From Heptranchias perlo (Eukaryota), in contig NC_090338.1 in assembly GCF_035084215.1 (NCBI RefSeq), positions 15,748,001-15,812,000 of the forward strand: a stretch of DNA of 64,000 nucleotides. The letters are read 5' to 3'. Position 1 is the first letter of the stretch. Every line of letters begins with the position of its first letter. Under the pieces are notes generated by a model, which had not been told where the DNA came from, ran no database searches, and saw nothing but the letters and a program-made list of their open reading frames with translations. Of the stretch, positions 2,180-55,929 are shown in pieces. A program made the translations under genes and the position numbers.

Positions 2180-2452
2180 CATTAACTTCAAGCTGGTACG
2201 TGATGTAAATTTTTGGCATGGTTCCATTAAATACAAGGCATTTCCATTTTCTGTTATTTTGCCCAATCTCCTGAATAAACAGCAACAGGCTGTGGTTTCC
2301 TTCTCCTGAAGGATTAAATGTTTTTTCTTTAACAAGGATTTTTCTGCCATTTTCCATCCAAACAAGTCTTGTTGCTCCACTAACATGAGAAGCAGAGCAG
2401 GTAAGGTTAACATTGTCTCCTTCAGCCAGACTGTGAGAGGGATTCGCTGTCA
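2180..2452 (-). CDS. IgSF exon, C2-type domain with WxC motif (CD4/LAG-3-superfamily-like), intact
   Basis: Acceptor TTGCAG|, donor |GTAAG, 273 nt, phase 1-1. Encodes VTANPSHSLAEGDNVNLTCS...RLVW...KWKCLVF...YQLEVN; paralogous to 48464-48723. Confidence 0.85.
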
Positions 2453-9055: not shown

Positions 9056-9211
9056 TTACATGGTTGTGAATGTGTTGCAGAACTTCTGAACAAAATAAAA
9101 ATTTAACTGCAAGTTGTAAATAAATTCCCTGCAATATTATTAGTTATACACATTGAATTAAGGAATTGCTGTTTGATTTTAAAATATTTATTTTATATTT
9201 ATTTCTTGCAG

Positions 9212-9552
9212 AAAACACAAATCCTATCTTTTTTAGATAATGAAGGCAATTTCATATTAAATGGATCAGACAATCCTGGAAATGATCCTGTCATCTGGGA
9301 ATGGAGACCACATTCTGGGCAATAAACTACAAAGCAGTTGGGTACTTTTCACAGAAGATACAGGGTGGAGGGTACAATGGAGCAAGGAGCACAATAATAC
9401 TCAAAGCATTTACAACCAGATAGATCAGGACCAGAGTACCCATAATCTGAGGATTACAAGACCTGGATTTGACCTTGCAGGATTGCTCAGCTGCTGATAG
9501 ACACAGCCCAGGGAAACAATCCTGAAACAGTACAAAGTCTGTGGGATCAAAG
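9212..9552 (+). pseudogene. Inverted pseudo-exon paralogous to the Cys-less V exons
   Basis: Acceptor TTCTTGCAG|, donor AAG|GTGAG. Encodes GSDNPGNDPVIWEWRPHSGQ*...NLRITRPGFDLAGLLSC**TQPRETILKQYKVCGIK with stops and frameshifts. About 150 bp of upstream intron is also similar to that of the 32326 and 53771 exons. Confidence 0.85.
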
Positions 9553-9555
9553 GTG

Positions 9556-10345
9556 AGAATACATAAGAAATAGGAGCAGGAGTAGGCCAATCGGCCCCTC
9601 GAGCCTGCTCCGCCATTCAATAAGATCATGGCTGATCTGATCCTAACCTGAAATCTAAAATCATGTCCAATTTCCTGCCCGCTCCCCGTAACCCCTAATT
9701 CCCTTTACTTCTAGGAAACTGTCTATTTCTGTTTTAAATTTATTCAGTGATGTAACTTCCACAGCTTCCAGGGGCAGCAAATTCCACAGACCTACTACCC
9801 TCTGAGTGAAGAAGTTTCTCCTCATCTCAGTTTTGAAAGAGCAACCCCTTATTCTGAGATTATGCCCCCTAGTTCTAGTTTCACCCATCCTTGGGAACAT
9901 CCTTACCGCATCCACCCGATCAAGCCCTTTCACAATCTTATATGTTTCAATAAGATCGCCTCTCATTCTTCTGAACTCGAATGAGTAGTGTCCCAATCAA
10001 CTCAACCTCTCCTCATATGTCCGCCCCCTCATCCCCGGGATTAACTGAGTGAACCTTCTTTGTACTGCCTCGAGAGCAGGTATGTCTTTTCTTAAGTATG
10101 GACACCAAAACTGTATGCAGTATTCCAGGTGCGGTCTCACCAATACCTTCTATAACTGCAGCAATACCTCCCTGTTTTTATATTCTATCCCCCTAGCAAT
10201 AAAAGCCAACATTCTGTTGGCCTTCTTGATCACCTGCTGCACCTGCATACTAACTTTTTGCTTTTCTTGCACTAGGACCCCCGGATCCCTTTGTACTGCA
10301 GTACTTTCCAGTTTCTTGCCATTAAGATAATAACTTGCTCTCTGA
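9556..10345 (-). mobile_element. 5'-truncated young CR1 (same subfamily as 11975-16411)
   Basis: Near-identical to the 3' end of the full-length element; TTCTTATG tail; inserted just after the pseudo-exon donor. Confidence 0.95.
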
Positions 10346-24459: not shown

Positions 24460-27400
24460 GACAGAGCAAACAAACAAAAGACAACAAATAGGGTCCAGGT
24501 AAGAAAAAATGGTAATAAGACAAATAGGGCCATAGTACAAAAAAATGTAAAGGTTTCTAAAAATGTTAAAAAGACAAATCTAAAGGCAGTGTATCTGAAT
24601 GCACTACACATTCGTAATAAGGTAGATGAATTTACAGTGTAAATAGATGTAAACGGATATGATATAATAGCAATTGCAGAGACATGGCTGCAGGGTGACC
24701 AAGGCAGGGAATATCCAAGGGTATTCGATATTTAGGAAGGACAGGCAAAAAGGAAAAGGAGGTGGGGTGGCGTTGTTAGTAAAGGATGAGATCAGAGCAA
24801 TAGTGAGAAAGGATATTGGCTCAGAAAATCAAGATGTAGAATCAGTCTGGGTGGAGTTAAGAAGCACCAAGAGGCAGAAAACACTGGTGGGAGTTGTCTA
24901 TAGGCCTCCAAACAGTAGTGGTAATGTAGGGGATGGGATCAAACAGGAAATTAGAGATGCATGTAACAAGGGTACTACAGTAATCACGGGTGACTTTAAT
25001 CAGCATATAGACTGGCCAAACCAAATTAGCAATAATACTGTGGAGGATGAATTCCTGGAGTGTGTACGAGATGGTTTTTTAGACCAGGAGCCAACTAGGG
25101 AACAGGCTAGCCTAGATTGGGTACTGTGCAATGAGAAGGGGTTAATTAATAATCATGCTAAGCGGGGTCCTTCAGGGAAGAGTGACCATAACATGATAGA
25201 ATTCTTCATTAAGATGGAAAGTGAAGTAGTCCAATCCGAAACCAGGGTCCTAAATCCAAACAAAGGAAACTACAAAGGTATGAGGAGTGAGTTGGCTATG
25301 ACAGATTGGGAAGGTTCATTAAAAGACATGACGGTGGATAGGCAATGGATAACATTTAAGGAACAATTGCATGAATTGCAACAATTATACATTCCTTTCT
25401 GACACAAAAACACAATAGGAAAAGACGCCCAACAATGGCTAACAAAAGAAATTGAGGATAGTATTAGATCCAAAGAGGAGTCATATAAATTTGGCAGAAA
25501 AAGTAGCAAGCCTGAGGATTGGGAGCAATTTCGAATTCAGCAAAAAAGGACCAAGAGATTGATTAAGAGGGGAAAAATGGAGTATGAGAGTAAACTTGCA
25601 AGGAACATTAAAGTGGACTGTAAAAGCTTCTACAAGCATGTAAAAAGAAAAAAATTAGTGAAGATTAATGTAGGTCCCTTACAGTCAGAAATCGGAGAAT
25701 TTATAATGGGGAACAAGGAAATGGCAGAGCAATTAAACAAATACTTTGGTTCTGTCTTCATGAAAGAGGACACAAATAACGTCCCAGAAATGCTAGGGAA
25801 CCAAGGGACTAGTGAGAAGGGGGAATTAAAGGAAATTCGTATTAGTAAAAAAATAGTCCTGGAAAAATTAATGGGACTGAAAGCCAATAAGTCCCCAGGG
25901 CCTGATAATCTGCATCCCAGAGTACGAAAAGAGGTAGCCATGGAAATAGTGGATGCATCAGTTGTCATATTCCAAAATTCTATAGATTATGGAACAGTTC
26001 CTGCAGATTAGAGGGTGGCAAATGTAACCCCACGATTTAAAAAAGGAGGGAGAGAAAACAGGGAACTACAGACCGGTTAGCCTAACATCAGTAGTAGGGA
26101 AAATGCTAGAGTCTATTATAAAGGAAGTGATAACAGGACACTTAGAAAATATCAATGGGATTAGACAAAGTCAACATGGATTTAGAACATAAGAACATAA
26201 GAAATAGGAGCAGGAGTAGGCCAATCGGCCCCTCGAGCCTGCTCCGCCATTCAATAAGATCATGGCTGATCTGGTCCTAACCTCAAATCTAAAATCATGT
26301 CCAATTTCCTGCCCGCTCCCCGTAACCCCTAATTCCCTTTACTTCTAGGAAACTGTCTATTTCTGTTTTAAATTTATTCAGTGATGTAGCTTCCACAGCT
26401 TCCTGGGGCAGCAAATTCCACAGACCTACCATCCTCTGAGTGAAGAAGTTTCTCCTCATCTCAGTTTTGAAAGAGCAGCCCCTTATTCTAAGATTATGCC
26501 CCCTCGTTCTAGTTTCACCCATCCTTGGGAACATCCTTACCGCATCCACCCGATCAAGCCCCTTCACAATCTTATATGTTTCAATAAGATCGCCTCTCAT
26601 TCTTCTGAACTCCAATGAGTAGTGTCCCAATCTACTCAACCTCTCCTCATATGTCTGCCCCCTCATCCCCGGGATTAACCGAGTGAACCTTCTTTGTACT
26701 GCCTCGAGAGCAAGCATGTCTTTTCTTCAGTATGGACACCAAAACTGTATGCAGTATTCCACGTGGGGTCTCACTAATACCTTATATAACTGCAGCAATA
26801 CCTCCCTGTTTTTATATTCTATCACCCTAGCAATAAAAGCCAACATTCCGTTGGCCTTCTTGATCACCTGCTGCACCTGCATACTAACCTTTTATGAAAG
26901 AGAAATCATGTTTGACAAACCTACTGGAGTTTTTTGAGGATGTAACTGGTAGAATAGATAAGGGAGAACCAGTGGATGTGGTTTATTTGGATTTTCAGAA
27001 GGCCTTTGATAAGGTCCCACATAAGAGGGTAGTGTGCAAAATTAAAGCACATGGGATTGTGGGTAATATACTGGCATGGATTGAAAATTGTTTAACAGAC
27101 AGGAAACAGTGAGTAGGAGTAAATGGGACTTTTTCGGGGTGACTAATGGGGTACCGCAAGGATCAGTGCTTGGGCCCCAGCTATTCACAATATATATTAA
27201 TGATTTGGATGAGGGAACCAAATGTAATATTTCCAAGTTTGCTCACGACACAAAACTGGGTGGGATTGTGAGTTGTGAGGAGGATGCAAAGAGGCTTCAA
27301 GGCGATTTAGACAAGTTGAGTGAGTGGACAAATACATGGCAGATGCAGTATAATGTGGATAAATGTGACGTTATCTACTTCAGAAGGAAAAACAGAAAGG

Positions 27401-47915: not shown

Positions 47916-48463
47916 ATATGAAATAATGAGGGCCACTGACTCTGCAGGCTCGAGTTTCCTGCTTTTGCACTCACAATGCACCAGCCCTAAATTAGAATGA
48001 GACAGATCAGAAACAGTTGTTTCCAGGATCAGCTGGGACAGGCAGAAAAGAAGAGTTTTTCAGAGCGTTAAGAGTGGAGAGTCTCAATTGCAATTTTTGA
48101 AGCTGGGAATTACATTTTGCTGTGATTTTTTTGGGTATTCTGCCACGACATTCTGATTGATTTTGGATAAGGAACCCAATGGAAACGGCTTCTGTACAAA
48201 TTTGCTGTCAAAAAAAAAAATTCTTACCCTGGCTCTGCATTTTTACCAAGAACGTATCTGAGACATACAGACCAGGAAATTTCCAGACTCGATCCCAGGC
48301 TGTGCTGGGTTATCTCGGGGTAAGTTTTCTGAGGCTCTGCACCACTGGTAGAGCCTCACACACAGGATATAAAGGAGGGGTTACTTCTGGCAAAAAGAAA
48401 AATAAGTGACAAGAATATTCTATTGAGATGATAAGTATAAAGATCAAACCATGTGTCACTTAC

Positions 48464-48723
48464 CGCTGGACTCCAGATAGTACGGGACTAAAACCAGGGG
48501 CCTGTTTTGATAAAACAAAGCACATATCCAGTTCCCTCTGCCTCTGTCAACTTTCTGAATATTCAGTCTCAATGATTTCTCTTCCCCATTCCTTCCATTC
48601 AATGTTTTTTCTCCTACAGTTTTGCCATCACTATTGATCCAAACAAGTCTGATTGATTCAGTGACATCAGAGACAGGGTAACGGTGTCTCCCTCAGTCAC
48701 TGCATCAGATGGTTCAGCTGTGA
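48464..48723 (-). pseudogene. WxC-type C2 IgSF exon with a 10-bp deletion removing the first Cys
   Basis: ACACAG| ... |GTAAGT, 260 nt. Encodes VTAEPSDAVTEGDTVTL[TCS deleted]...RLVWINSDG...GNWICALF...YYLESS; comparison with 2180-2452 shows loss of ACCTGCTCTG. Confidence 0.88.
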
Positions 48724-48801
48724 CTGTGTAAACAAGGAAATCATTTAGATTTTAAACAATGACTTTATCATTGAAAACAACGGCAACAATCTGTCTCCTA
48801 C

Positions 48802-49146
48802 CTTTAACTGTGATTAGTTTAATGGTAACATATTTATATGATCCCAGAGAACATGTGTAAACTCCGGCATCTTCAAACAGTACAGGGACAATCCTCACAC
48901 TGAAGTTCTCGCCATTAAAATTTGCCATTGTGGGAACCAGTCTTTTCCCAAAGTAGGTCCTGTTTACATTGATGAGCTCAGATTTCGAAGCAGATGCTAT
49001 TTCTTTCTCCTGATTCTGAAGATGATGTGACCTCCAGGCCCATGCAGCAGTATCGTAAGAATAAACATAATAATCATAGCAAATCTGGTAGAGTTCACTG
49101 TGCTCTGTGCCTGACTGATAAAGTGTGTAAATTTTATAATATAAAC
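48802..49146 (-). CDS. V-type IgSF exon, intact (not in the supplied ORF track)
   Basis: CTTGCAG| ... AAG|GTAGG, 345 nt, phase 1-1. Encodes LYYKIYTLY...ELYQICYDY...AAWAWRSH...FGKRL...FSVRIVPVLFEDAGVYTCSLGSYKYVTIKLITVK. Confidence 0.9.
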
Positions 49147-49289
49147 CTGCAAGAGAGAGACAGAGAACAAAGTATTAGAATTTTACAGGTCCCGAGATAC
49201 AGAGAAAAGCCAGAATAATTAACGGCCACAATTATATAAAACTATTTTGTGCTTTGATCATCATTTTATAAAGTGTTGTTAAAGATATG

Positions 49290-50757
49290 GGGCTTCATTT
49301 TAGCGCCCGCTATCAGGTGCGTTCTTGACTGGGGGGGGGGGCTCCGAAAATCGGGGAATCCCAAAGCGGGTTCGGAGCCCGGCTCCAACCCTCCCACTTC
49401 CAGGTTCCCCACAGAGGCGCCGATGTGAGAGCGCAGCCCCCGCATGTGGGAATCCCGCAGGCAATTAAAGCCGGCGGGGTGCCACTTAAAAGTATTTACT
49501 GAGGTATTTCAGGTCATTAACTGACCTGATTAAGTGAATATGTGAGGAGGGGTAGGATTTTATAGACAACTGGGACTGTTTCCCATACTGGGGGAAACAC
49601 TCCCAGTTCAAATGGACGAGTTGCAGCCATCAGCCTGTGGCAGCTGCAAAGGTCCATTTGACAGGTGGGGGGGGGAGGGTGAGACCCTCACTCATTGCAG
49701 GAGGCCACTCTGTCACTTGGGACAAAGTTTGGCCTCCACCACCCTCCTCCTGACAAGAAAATTCACCAACTTGCACACTTACCCCGGGGTCCAGAGACAT
49801 GTACCTACCTTGCGGACCCCCTCAGATGTACATCTTCCGGATGGGGGCCACCGTAGCTGCAGTCATGCCCTCCTCGGAGGGCGAACAGCATCACCAGCCT
49901 CGCCGGCTACGCCGTCCACCTCTGACATGTGGAGTTCCGAAACAGAGTGCTGTGACACATCCACCTGTACAGCAGGAGGGAGGGCAACTGCAGAGAGAGA
50001 TGCGTCGCAGAAGGCACTACCCTTGCCACAGGGTCCACAGACTGAGGCTCAGCTTCCTGGTCCTCTCTGAGCAGCAGTGCACACGGAGGCTCAGAGTCAT
50101 TCGACATGAAGTCGTGGACATCTGCAGCCTCCTTCATGCCGAGCTGCTCCCGGTTGGCCCGAGCACCATCTTCTTACCTGTCGCAGAAGGAGATGTGGGG
50201 TGGGGGCGGTGATGTGGCAGACTGAGTGTAGGGGAATGAGTAAGTGTACTCACTTTGGCTGACCTACTTAGGTCATTGGAGCGCCTCCTACACTGTATGC
50301 AGGTGGGCGATATGTTGGTGGTGCAGGTGACCTCCTCTGCCACCTCGAGCTAGGCCTTCCTGGTGGCAGAGGCAGGCAGCTACCTCCCGCCCGCCGGGGG
50401 GAAGATCTCTGTTCTCCCTCTCCTCCTCACCCCATCTAATGATACCTGGAGTGAAGCATCATTAAACTGGGAGCAGCCTTCCCCCTGGGCTGCTCCATGC
50501 TGTAATTTTTCCTATTTGTTGCAGCATCTGTCAGTGGAGGACTGCCCCTTTAAAAAGAGCTCCTCCAGCTAACAGACCTTACTGCGCATGCTCAGTCCGC
50601 CCGATGCGCAGATCATCAGTGGGGAACCCGGAAGACCAGGTAAGTGGATACAATTCGGCTGCGATCGCACGGGGTCAGACTGATTTCTCCGGGCGCGTTA
50701 CCCACACGCCCAATAGCCCCCCCGCCGCGAACCCGCAGCCCTGGTAACATCGAGCCC
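49290..50757 (-). mobile_element. Harbinger family A copy 3, reversed and internally deleted, in an intron of the IgSF gene
   Basis: Ends GGGCTTCATTTTAG / ATCGAGCCC; TSD ATG; transposase and Myb remnants joined near 50185. Confidence 0.9.
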
Positions 50758-51608
50758 ATGAACTGTTTAAGAATTTTACAGCTTGGAAGAATTCAATTCC
50801 CATGAGACCACAGAAATGTTTAAACAATGAAACCTTTTTGATTTTTAATATGATGAGATTTTTGTGCTATTGAAGACACCATGACATCACAGGCCCAGTG
50901 TTATGAGATTCGGTCAGTAACATGGAGTCCTGCTGGTGGCGGCTGCAGGTTGTGTAGAACTAAAGTTTGCACGGATCCATTTTGCTGACCCAAATATGGT
51001 TTCCTTCAGGCAAGTGCAATCCTCATTTATATGGAATAATTATTCAAAAAAGGTCTCATGCAGAATTTCACAAGTGTTTGAAAAATTCTGCCTCCAGTGC
51101 TCATCTCACCCATGCAAAATGGGCACATGTCAGCTCCATGGGCTTGGCCCACTTTAACATAATCCTTAAAGTAAGGTCGCTGTTGTTTGAGTTGGTGACA
51201 ACTTGTAGGTTTTTTCACAGTGAACATCTGTCTCCTATATGTAACATTTTGCACAGAGTTTATACCTGTGCTTTCTATTTCTGCTAAATCCTTCAATTTG
51301 CTAAACAAGACTATCCCACAGTCTTTTTAATTGCTGCTGCAATACAACTTGGCAGCTAACAAAGTGAGAAGGTTGGGAATACTTTACTTATTGTCCAGTG
51401 AGTACTTGAAATAGCAGCAGCACTCGGTTAGGAGTGGCACTGAGGGGAGAGCGGCCAGTATTTTGTTCAATGTTGACATGTGCACCAGGCCCCCACATGC
51501 TGACTGTAAGCATGAAGTGCTGATGTTTGACATGTATGACTCCACTTTGTATGTAACAGTTTTATATTAGTAACTGTTTAATATCTACTGTGAGGTAACT
51601 GCACCTAC

Positions 51609-51878
51609 CCTGGGTCACAGGAAAATCTGCTTTTCCTGTGAGAATAATGGATCCATTTTCCTGCACTTCACACACATACAACTCCTTATCCTCTACTTTA
51701 ACATGTTTGATTATCAGATAATCTGTGTTCTTTATTCGGATCTGATCAGTGTTCCTCCTGTTCTGCTGAGATGAGTCCCTTTGTTTCCATTGAAGACTGA
51801 CTGTATCTGAGAGTTTGGAGATGGTACAGCTGAGTATAACGTCACTGCCCACCACAGCACTCTGCGGACTTGACTCAA
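51609..51878 (-). CDS. C2-type IgSF exon, intact
   Basis: TTTCACAG| ... |GTAGG, 270 nt, phase 1-1. Encodes VESSPQSAVVGSDVILSCTIS...LQWKQRD...LIIKHVKVEDKELYVCEVQENG. Confidence 0.9.
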
Positions 51879-53429
51879 CTGTGAAAACAGATAAATAAAT
51901 TGCAGTACAGTTTACTGTAAGTAGTTGCATTCTAGAACAATTAGGTTCTAACTGACGTTAGGATGTGCTAATTATTTTACCTTGTTTCATTAAAGAGTCA
52001 GACCAGATTACACACAAGTGCATCTCAGCCGTAGAATATGATAATGAGGCCAAAAATTCTCAGTGAGGCAGAGCAGGGCTTTATTGCTGACCATGTGGGA
52101 GTATCCGGGGTCAGGTCAAGGTTACATAGTCTGGATGGCATTTGTGGATGCCCACCCCACAATAGACAGGTGATGGAAACTCACCAGAGGAGGGTGTGCT
52201 GGAAATGTAGTGCCCATATTATCAGACATGGAATAAGCTCATGGCATATTGTGTTCTCAATGTGCCTAGCACACTTCAGTAAGACCAACCAACACATGCA
52301 CTGGGAATCTGTGCACAAAATCCACATCAAAAGTACAACCTCAGAGGTTGGTAAAATTATGCATCTGTGCAGGGCTCCAATCATTGAGCATTCATGAGGA
52401 ACGGCACTTCAGGAACTGCTTGTGCTAAAATGCCCAACCTTACTTTCAGTCCCAGCAACAACATGGCAAGTAATAATCAAATCTTCAACAGGGACTTTCT
52501 TTTGAATGCCAGGTGAAAATAATGATAGCATCCATTGGCTGCTGATGCCTAACACTCTGGTACCGAACCCATGTGGCATTCCCTGTGTACCATGCACTGT
52601 GTACCATGAGCATCACTAAAAAATGTAAATGAGTTGATTTTCTATTATGGTCAACTCATTCTGGTGCAGTTGGGGCCAAAACCTCAGGAGCAATGGTCCA
52701 GGGCAAGTAGAGTCAGGATCATATTTTGGCCTCTGTGACACTTCATGATTGGATTATATTTTGTATCAAATTCATTTGACAGTGACCTTAACCACATTTT
52801 GATGTTAAAACACATCAACCAATCAGGATATGTCACTGCTTAGCAATATGCTTAGTTGGCAGAATCTAAAGATTATGATATATTTGTACTAATGGTTTTA
52901 AATACTATTGAGTTGATGCAATTTATCTATTTTTTTCTGCCATGTTTCTCCTTCATTTCCTGAAGGTGTTAACTCCTTAGCAGAGTACAAGTATCACGGA
53001 CACTTGACATCCTCTGGGACCTCAACTAAGTGACACATCGAATAGGTTCACTGGATAGCAATATACTGGCCAAACTTATACCTGTCCCAGGTTACTGAGG
53101 CCTACTACTACAAGTGATCTGTTGGTTTCATAACAGAATTCATTACATTTTACAGAGAGTCTATCAGTATATAGACCATAATACTCTCTGGAAAGGGTTA
53201 TTTACTCATTTCGCGACATGTAGTGAAATTGTCAAAATGCCTTCACTCATGTTGACCATTTCAGGGGAAATAATGAACAAAATCTTTCCCCTGGTTGTTT
53301 TAATGAGAGATGCACTCTGCACTGGGTGATATAAATCTCACATAATCCTGTCAGTCTCTTATCTTTACACATGAAATTATTTACAGAGAATCAATTTATT
53401 GAACCTTTTCTAGTCTTTGTCCCATTCAC

Positions 53430-53771
53430 CTTTGATCCCAAATATTTCATACTGTTTCAGGATTTTATTTCTGGGCTGTGTCTGAGTCCAGGTGAACAAT
53501 CCCGCAAGTTCAAACGTGGAATTTTGAATTCTCAGATTAATGGTACTCTGATCCCGCTGTATCATCGAGTACAAGTCGTTGTTTCTAAAGTGATCGCTCC
53601 ATTGTACATTCCACCAGCCATAATAACCTTTGTAAAAATTAACCAGCCGTTGGATTGGTTGCCCTGAGTGTGGTTTCCATTCCCAGACAACAGGGCCATT
53701 TCCAGGATTGTCTGGTCCTTTTAGTGGAAAGTCATTTCCCTTGTCCAAAAAATAAATATGATTTGGGTTTC
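53430..53771 (-). CDS. V-like IgSF exon lacking both canonical cysteines, intact
   Basis: CTAGCAG| ... AAG|GTGAA, 342 nt, phase 1-1. B-strand LKG, C-strand WEW, E-strand NLRI, F-strand LAGLFTW. Confidence 0.85.
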
Positions 53772-54209
53772 CTGCTAGAAAGAGGAACAATGTAAACATT
53801 TTAATATCAAATCACAACTCCTTAGTCGCATGTTTGTAATTATTAATATTGGACTTCATATATTTTCAGTCATATTTGTATATTCAACGGATTTAGCAAT
53901 GACACAGACACGCCCCTGTGTAGAGCTGTCTGTCTGGAATAATCAGGCCTAATCCAGTGATACTTTAAGACATTAGAGGGTAAATTTCGGCCACTGCACT
54001 CTGACCTCATGGGCTGGTGATGTCCAATTTCACAATATGTATTTCCAGCATTTGCTGGGAGTGCGGAAGGGGAATCGTTCCTCCCATATTGTTAAGAAAT
54101 TTGAAATACTGTCGCAATAATCAGCATTCTCCTAAAATTGAATTCAGTACTGATGCAGTCATATCACTTCAGGCTCAAAAATCAGGACAGTGATCTTTAA
54201 AAGTGGTCT

Positions 54210-54530
54210 ACATAAGAACATAAGAAATAGGAGCAGGAGTAGGTCATACAGCCTCTTGAGCCTGATCCGCCATTTAATAAGATCATAGCTGATCTTCGAT
54301 CTCAACTTTACTTCCCCGCCTGATCCCCATATCCCTTGATGCCTTTAATATCAAGAAATCTATCGAACTCTGTTTTGAATGTATCTAATAACTCAGTATC
54401 CACAGCCCTCGGGTAGAGAATTCCAAAGATTCACCACCCTCTGAGCGAAGAAGTTCCTCCTCACCTCAGTACTAAATCGCTCACCCCTTATCCTGAGACT
54501 ATGACCCCTAGTTCTAGACTCTTCAGTCAG
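54210..54530 (-). mobile_element. CR1 3' fragment
   Basis: ACATAAGAACATAAG tail and CR1 3'UTR. Confidence 0.85.
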
Positions 54531-55243
54531 TGACCTCTCCTCTTGTGCAATGCACAGTAAGTTGTTGCTTCTCCTGGACCACCGGTGACCAGGCTACCCA
54601 CAGGACTACCTATAACAAAGGGAGGCAGGATTTCCCATTTTGCCATAATCTGGCTGTAGGTCAGTGTGACAGACTCTGTCTTCCCCCACTGCAAACCCCA
54701 GGGAATTTTCTCAGGTCAGCCTAACTTCCATAATTTCCAGCAGGATTTGTGCTTTGATCTGAGGAACCCACCTGGGAGAGGGAGAAAGATGATTGCTGCA
54801 GGTCTCGAGCACGTGCAGCAGCAGATCAGGACTGACTACCTGCGAGGTAGCTGAAGAGAAGGGGCAACTTTTGAAAAAGAGATTGATCACCTCATGATCA
54901 ATTGACTTGCTTCAGAAAGATCTTTGAAAATTAAACCCCCTCCCACACACCATTGCAATGCTGGATGCCGGGAACATGCTGCTGTCCTTTGTGATCCAGC
55001 ATTGCTACGGCGGTAATGACGGGGAATGTAACATCTGATATCACTTGGCCATTCAGGCAATGTGAATAAACCTGTCCAGATTTGGGTCCATATATTCAAT
55101 GAAGTGACGACAATCTGCAGGGAGCAGGTTGCCGGATCCCCACCCCTACTTTCTGATCCTGCCAACCACAATCTATCCAAAATTGGGCAAGAAGGGAGAG
55201 CGAAATCCTCTCCCATTATGATCCCAAGAAACTAGCAAAGCTC

Positions 55244-55325
55244 CTTCATTGAGAAGTTCAGTCCAGAGAAGTTTGTAATAACACACAAATACACAAGGAG
55301 GAAGCACTGTATCATGTCGCCTTCA
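55244..55325 (-). other. Candidate leader exon of the IgSF gene, donor absent or damaged
   Basis: Polypyrimidine tract and CTGCAG|, ATG at 55315 giving MIQCFLLVYLCVITNFSGLNFSMK, then AAG-GAG rather than GT; about 1.5 kb upstream of the first Ig exon. Confidence 0.35.
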
Positions 55326-55929
55326 CTGCAGGCAGTGTTACAGAGAAAAACAGAACAATTCCATTATACATTCAGTGTATCTATTACTAGTTATCAGAAC
55401 ATACAACATTACTACAAAAAATAATCAAATAAAAAGAGAGGACATGGCTAAATTCCATGTTACAGAAAATAAAGGCTCCACATTTTCTTGCGACTCCTGC
55501 TCTAAAGGGGACAGTATCAGGGTGGAGAGGAGCTAGCGGGAGAGAAATTGGAGAGGGATACGGTTATATTGGGTCTCCACCCCATTTGTCCTGTGAGGGG
55601 TTTCCTGAGGTGGGAGGAGATCAAGCAGTTCCTGAGTCCGACCCCCCTCCTTGTCTAAAAAGACAGCGTGACAAAGATAAACCAGCTCTTGGAACCTGAC
55701 TTGCAGCCTCTTTCCACCAGGTATTTTGCTGTATCTCTGAAAGGTCACAGCAACAACAACAACTTGCATTTATATAGTGCCTTTAACGTAGCAGAACATC
55801 CCAAGGCGCTTCACAGGAATGTTATCAAACAAAATTTGACTCCAAACCACATAAGGAGATATTAGGACAGGTGACATTTTGATAGGCAGAATAAGGGAGC
55901 CACATCCTGCTTGGATAATAAGAGTCTAA

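Follow-up and report, generated by a model that had tools for sequence, protein, structure and literature searches.

The CD4/LAG-3 family is regarded as having just two members, whose tails act in opposite ways, and signalling by receptors with immunoreceptor tyrosine-based inhibitory motifs (ITIMs) or charged transmembrane (TM) segments is well established. DICPs, known from ray-finned fish and the coelacanth, pair activating with inhibitory forms and carry a WxC-type D2. According to PMC10768021, a strand running continuously across V-C2 immunoglobulin (Ig) domain pairs is a feature of CD4 and LAG-3 (section 3.6), the LAG-3 tail is a single exon with the pattern (F/Y)xxL(D/E), and the shark forms are defined by tail and location. 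The preprint bioRxiv 10.1101/2021.06.11.448072 describes DICPs as D1-D2 and D1-D2-D1-D2 receptors; most of their domains have four cysteines, the four-domain forms lack most of the DICP-specific ones, and the bowfin genes are linked to the MHC (major histocompatibility complex). Teleost G6F-like (G6fL) appears in PMC3528668 as a thrombocyte collagen receptor with four Ig domains and a tail carrying an ITAM (immunoreceptor tyrosine-based activation motif) and a Grb2-binding YxN, and MDIRs are activating and inhibitory elasmobranch receptors with CD300/TREM/pIgR-like domains (PMC3031540).

With these we compare a receptor module of the shark Heptranchias perlo, first annotated at positions 48464-55325 of a 64,000-nucleotide stretch of DNA, called the window below (C14:15748001-15812000, on contig NC_090338.1); 1.06 Mb was mapped around it. 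At a probability of about three in four, we consider the module a pseudogene copy of a clustered CD4/LAG-3-like family, whose intact members, with ITIMs or charged TM segments, are likely paired inhibitory and activating immune receptors.

Anatomy and lesions of the window copy

The first-pass annotation had reported four consecutive phase-1 Ig exons in the order V-C2-V-C2, with DAGVYTC in D3 and W-x-C in D4. These stand: all four lie on the minus strand in phase 1 with AG/GT splice ends, those of D4 agreeing with paralog RNA-type contigs. The exons are genuine, but a 10-nt deletion in D4, with its cysteine loss and frameshift, had been overlooked. D1-D4 are also only part of the same gene, to which two exons 16-18 kb downstream, D5 and D6, have to be added.

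D1 exon, 53771-53430, minus strand: 342 nt, V-type Ig domain with zero cysteines, frame open
D2 exon, 51878-51609, minus strand: 270 nt, C2-type Ig domain, YxC instead of WxC in strand F, frame open
D3 exon, 49146-48802, minus strand: 345 nt, V-type Ig domain, DAGVYTC, frame open
D4 exon, 48723-48464, minus strand: 260 nt, C2-type, WIC in strand F, broken
D5 exon, 32326-31975, minus strand: opens the second unit, frameshift from a 7-nt tandem duplication
D6 exon, 30329-30060, minus strand: C2-type, Trp at the F-strand Cys site, final exon of the window copy
Intron 1 remnant, 53772-55550, minus strand: contains the "leader-like" stretch, not an exon of the receptor family

Each window domain has 0-2 cysteines, and paralogous D6 exons likewise lack the F-strand Cys. 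Pfam recognizes D2 as Ig_3 (E 2e-9); D3 matches V-set at E 2.7e-5, which falls short of the curated cut-off, and neither D1 nor the portion of D4 submitted matched any Pfam family. D3 carries an in-frame 9-nt deletion, at 49066, that is specific to this copy.

Relative to the gene for P0002, an intact cluster member, the window copy is a partial paralog in inverted orientation, with homology running from intron 1 to just beyond D6 at 88-95% identity (92% in D1), and it probably arose through duplication and deletion inside the cluster. The upstream leader-like exon of the first-pass annotation proved to be intron: the DNA around 55325 shares 93% identity with the first intron of an intact paralog, and a word-7 blastn search of 664 kb with four paralog leaders as queries found six family leader exons, none of them upstream of the window copy. 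The annotation was right that the window holds no TM or cytoplasmic exon of the family, and the downstream search it recommended brought no D7, D8, TM or tail belonging to this copy after D6. An apparent D8 remnant near 25774 was rejected, as it has no DNA similarity to the paralog D8 or D12 and lies on the antisense strand of a long interspersed nuclear element (LINE). Orphan inhibitory TM and ITIM tail exons do occur at C14:15849324-15837428 on the minus strand (L016-L017), an inverted paralog of the 3' end of the P0002 gene; they lie upstream of the window copy and therefore cannot complete it.

The 10 nt absent from D4 at 48673/48674, between short CAG repeats, are present in 8/8 aligned paralogous D4-type exons or D3-D4 regions. 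Their loss removes the B-strand Cys and shifts the frame, so that a stop follows after some 36 codons of the spliced frame; there is a single occurrence of the deletion junction in the genome. In run X1, DNA contigs agree with the copy-specific segments 49033-49204 and 48200-48354 with no differences at a depth of about 17, and the copy therefore exists, though the runs may be from the assembly's own sample. At 48910 and 49003 every contig of the RNA-type runs X5 and X6 has the paralog letters, which, contigs being unable to show absence, is no claim that the window copy is silent. Window D3 has no 100% match among its 54 relative proteins (201-2000 aa); neighbouring intact genes are found letter for letter in the protein set (P0002 at 100%). 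Because of the second frameshift, in D5, and the missing ends, a pseudogene is likely whatever the status of the D4 deletion. The window copy, frameshifted and without leader or TM exon, is thus most likely a pseudogene, and it contributes no receptor.

Relation to CD4 and LAG-3

CD4 and LAG-3 are the nearest named relatives of this family by profile and by fold. Aligned by hhalign, the family and CD4/LAG-3 match with a probability of 99.85 over 351 columns at 19% identity. Searching 1.84 billion representatives with the profile produced 151 matches at E up to 1e-10, and names were looked up for 30 of the 150 listed. Those named include uncharacterized proteins of a chimaera, sturgeons, bichir, bowfin, eels, tarpon, pike, carps, catfish, characins and four frogs, followed by CD4 and LAG-3 of coelacanth, lungfish, caecilian, turtle and a lizard. 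For amniotes only CD4-type proteins were among these names, which does not show absence of the family. A coelacanth member was found among the relatives. The family, which reaches from chimaeras to frogs with almost all members labelled "uncharacterized", is apparently without a name so far. No description of it was found in the literature searched, most subscription papers lying outside its reach, and its novelty is therefore provisional. The accessible part of PMC10768021 likewise mentions no such family.

A 40-row ectodomain tree, in which the window gene was read with X at the break, has a branch supported at 100/99 with the 26 family rows on one side and 12 CD4/LAG-3 rows on the other (5 labelled from look-ups, the rest from tail motifs). 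An AlphaFold model of P0040, an intact four-domain member, was built from a 64-sequence alignment and has a predicted local distance difference test score (pLDDT) of 87.8. In it D1 has a V-set fold and continuous strands cross D1-D2 (residues 124-138) and D3-D4 (331-346), so that each V-C2 pair is predicted to fold as a CD4-like rod. With this model the top VIA-align match is rat CD4 D3-D4 (Z 15.7, root-mean-square deviation 2.5 A, 170 aa) and the best Foldseek matches are LAG-3 and CD4; the best fold matches are 1cid, 4q6i, 8dgg, 7tzg and 1wio. Atlas feature searches returned generic Ig clusters, with LAG3 at rank 12.

The family thus shares with CD4/LAG-3 the V-C2-V-C2 order, phase-1 exons, WxC in D4 and a predicted continuous G-A strand in each V-C2 pair. 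It differs in forming a multigene cluster with 1-3 tandem units, CD4 and LAG-3 being encoded by about one gene each, in its canonical ITIM tails or Lys/Arg-bearing TM segments, in its neighbours and in its separate clade. The WxC that had been taken as the mark of CD4/LAG-3 is only half present: the strand-F Trp occurs in D4 in 55/58 rows with a residue and in D2 in 1/60, where YxC is found instead, whereas in CD4/LAG-3 rows it is invariant in both domains (14/14). D1 mostly lacks cysteines, with none at all in 18/32 rows and an F-strand-site Cys in 5/36, and the Cx(C/H) Lck motif is found in the tails of 0/46 TM-bearing elasmobranch relatives and 0/22 other named members. Having no Cx(C/H) tail, no D2 WxC and no D1 cysteines, the family is therefore neither CD4 nor LAG-3, but related to them. 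The suggestion that the module is CD4-related and probably not CD4 accordingly agrees with the profile, profile-profile and fold searches, with the reservation that this copy is broken and leaderless. A caution follows for annotation, in that V-C2-V-C2 with WxC alone does not justify calling shark genes CD4.

The genome's own CD4 and LAG-3 were not located with coelacanth CD4 and LAG-3 as queries (best E 0.002-0.01, with matches on C7 and C2), and a CD4/LAG-3 profile search matched only coelacanth CD4 and one G6f-like protein. TPI, presumably a neighbour of CD4, is on contig C90 of this genome, and MHC II alpha is on the unplaced contig C1093.

Two further proteins, P0109 and P0115, from a 12.8-Mb record, have 3-4 WxC-bearing V-C2 units and an ITAM-like tail with multiple tyrosines. 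Both outscore CD4 against the family D3-D4 profile. They may be related to the lamprey CD4-like molecule, the lamprey label being a guess.

Intact members and competing explanations

Intact paralogs have 1-3 V-C2-V-C2 units, followed either by a neutral TM with ITIMs or by a Lys-bearing TM with a short tail. Apparently intact genes in the cluster are:

P0037/38: 4 domains, ITIM tail
P0040: 4 domains, Lys-TM
P0007: 8 domains, ITIM
P0002: 12 domains, ITIM

With window D3 as query, 54 proteins were matched, all 54 from elasmobranchs (sharks and rays) and named "uncharacterized", "hypothetical", "obscurin-like" or "VCAM-1-like". The chondrichthyan expansion that had been proposed therefore holds for this close subfamily; the whole family is not limited to cartilaginous fish. 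A neutral TM with an ITIM is present in 33 of the 54, a Lys-TM without ITIM in 6, an Arg-TM without ITIM in 4 and a neutral TM without ITIM in 3, with no TM detected in the other 8. The tails of intact genes span at least 4 exons and carry IxYxxV/VxYxxI motifs, and the (F/Y)xxL(D/E) pattern occurs in 2/54 relatives, each time adjoining the TM. In RNA-type contigs with paralog letters, D3 is spliced to D4, and D4 to the inhibitory TM exon.

P0037 (ITIM) and P0040 (Lys-TM) lie in one cluster and have near-identical D3-D4. As in paired receptors, the genes are clustered and combine similar ectodomains with either an ITIM tail or a short tail behind a charged TM; given these tails, the family is likely a paired-receptor family rather than one of co-receptors. 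Lys-TM forms occur in bowfin and sturgeon too. A side observation is that the activating-type TM motif GYLxxK is common to shark P0040 and the bowfin and sturgeon members (P0040, P0092, P0099), the ectodomains of which do not group together in the tree.

The paralogs vary chiefly in their V domains, as would fit the binding of a ligand under pressure from pathogens. Pooled dN/dS is 1.41 in D3, 0.71 in D1, 0.51 in D2, 0.47 in D4 and 0.35 in D5, values that come from 4-6 non-independent paralogs with few synonymous changes. The variable domains D1 and D3 would bind the ligand, probably a self surface protein mimicked or exploited by pathogens. By analogy with other ITIM receptors, binding would lead to phosphorylation of the ITIMs by Src-family kinases and recruitment of SHP-1/2, and Lys-TM forms may pair with a DAP12-type adaptor and Arg-TM forms with one of FcR-gamma type. 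The boldest ligand candidate is MHC class II. It is conceivable, if speculative, that the CD4/LAG-3 lineage has in this family a third branch, so far unrecognised and extending from chimaeras to frogs, whose paired receptors would recognise MHC class II, or some related self ligand, on innate or natural killer-like cells, CD4 and LAG-3 being single-copy specialists derived from such a paired family. A sister family in which clustered receptors of ITIM and charged-TM type share the rod-like ectodomain would bear on the origin of the co-receptors. The family adds candidate innate inhibitory receptors in fish and amphibians.

Several points weigh against regarding the module as a broken member of a CD4/LAG-3-related family. 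The D4 deletion junction is bridged by 0/5 (X3) and 0/4 (X4) DNA contigs aligned to 48600-48760; as contigs are filtered and lose variants, this speaks, beyond the assembly itself, neither for the deletion nor against it. Members of the ectodomain tree were picked by similarity to the shark profile, and shark CD4/LAG-3, DICP and MDIR were left out of it. A tree of V-C2 units leaves the deep nodes unresolved, and places both family units near CD4/LAG-3 D1-D2 with a Shimodaira-Hasegawa-like approximate likelihood ratio (SH-aLRT) of only 85, so that no order of duplication is claimed. The fold margins are small (nectin-1 D1 reaches Z 14.5, for one domain only, and a diabody is Foldseek rank 3). 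Sequence-only searches of the PDB rank LAG-3 high and not first, with PD-L1 first in one and titin, NCAM and CEA before LAG-3 in the other. The non-independence of the paralogs behind the dN/dS values belongs here as well.

Would a named multigene family accommodate these genes equally well, leaving only the link to CD4/LAG-3 as new? DICPs are, like this family, clustered two- and four-domain Ig receptors built by unit duplication, and their four-domain forms lack most DICP-specific cysteines; G6fL has four Ig domains and groups with CD4/LAG-3 in trees; MDIRs (of the clearnose skate), in common with KIR, LILR, CD300 and SIRP, are clustered and have ITIM and charged-TM versions with similar ectodomains. 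We regard such an identity as unlikely. No DICP, G6F or MDIR name appears among the 54 D3 relatives, the 30 looked-up profile matches or the 120 listed of 161. No search returned a DICP sequence. DICPs and MDIRs could be compared by description only, but by those descriptions most DICP domains have four cysteines and the bowfin genes are in the MHC (bioRxiv 10.1101/2021.06.11.448072), whereas this family has two or no cysteines and lies between ARAP-type and P4HA genes, and MDIR domains are CD300/TREM/pIgR-like (PMC3031540) as against a CD4-like ectodomain. The special relatedness to fish G6F-like that had been suggested did not materialize: the one G6F-like sequence available sits on a long branch that is not part of the family clade and scores 17 bits with the D3-D4 profile, against 47-89 for CD4/LAG-3, and G6fL has an ITAM tail (PMC3528668), unlike the ITIM-type or short tails found here.

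Slightly less probable again is a working window copy, with the D4 deletion an assembly error or one allele, or with D1-D3 serving as a soluble decoy, or with D4-D5 spliced past to the type-B D4 and TM downstream. The frames of D1-D3 and all splice sites are intact, dN against the nearest paralog does not exceed dS, no DNA contig showed the deletion junction, and skipping would keep the frame as all exons are phase 1. Yet D5 has a second, independent frameshift, there is no leader exon, D7-D8-TM are missing, and the type-B TM has two Arg substitutions. The D4 deletion between short CAG repeats and the tandem duplication in D5 are not homopolymer slips, and at so low a divergence from the paralog (dS 0.04-0.06) intact frames are expected after a recent loss. 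A third reading, with the module as the shark's own CD4 or LAG-3 or as directly duplicated from one of them, is very improbable in spite of its domain order, D4 WxC and CD4-like fold. Cx(C/H) is absent from all 46 TM-bearing relatives, and the family has its own clade. Catshark members of the family are on a 244-Mb sequence, presumably not chromosome 16 given the size ranking of the chromosomes. Catshark CD4 is placed on chromosome 16 in PMC10768021, and the multi-exon ITIM tails are unlike the single-exon LAG-3 tail given there. A pseudogene copy within a family of paired receptors remains our preferred reading.

The cluster and its surroundings

The receptor cluster extends from about 15.24 to 15.98 Mb on C14 (about 750 kb), and holds, besides the apparently intact genes listed above, a divergent type-B gene and many broken or orphan pieces; it evolves by birth-and-death. 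Genome matches (13 D3, 15 D4 and 20 D1/D5, all lower bounds) fall without exception on C14, either inside the cluster or at a single site, 26.6 Mb. Two other pieces lie in the window:

Decayed D1/D5-type exon, 9185-9557, plus strand: separate, same family, with stops and a frameshift
Divergent "type B" D4 exon (WKC), 2180-2452, minus strand: D1-D3 missing, TM and tail exons just outside the window

The 26.6-Mb site (C14:26.61-26.64 Mb, minus strand, L133-L135), 10.6 Mb from the cluster, encodes a divergent four-domain member with an ITIM-like tail (P0079/P0202), one isoform of which has the source name CEACAM5-like. In an eight-domain ITIM paralog the TM exon (C14:15460459-15460129, L065) is split by about 210 bases and D1 is broken; its annotated product, P0005, lacks both.

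For the flanks, the 150 longest of 1203 unmasked open reading frames were read by eye and 23 submitted to Pfam, of which 8 matched. The cluster is flanked by an ArfGAP/RhoGAP/PH (ARAP-type) gene and a P4HA subunit gene (15.17-15.24 Mb, L076-L082; 16.07-16.09 Mb, L099-L101), which we take to be ARAP3 and P4HA2, both presumably in human 5q31. The window also contains, at 15132-12172 on the minus strand, an open frame of 987 codons, in which motifs of an endonuclease and a reverse transcriptase were recognised by eye and which, with an ORF1-like frame ahead of it at 15761-15111, makes up an apparently intact CR1/L2-type LINE.

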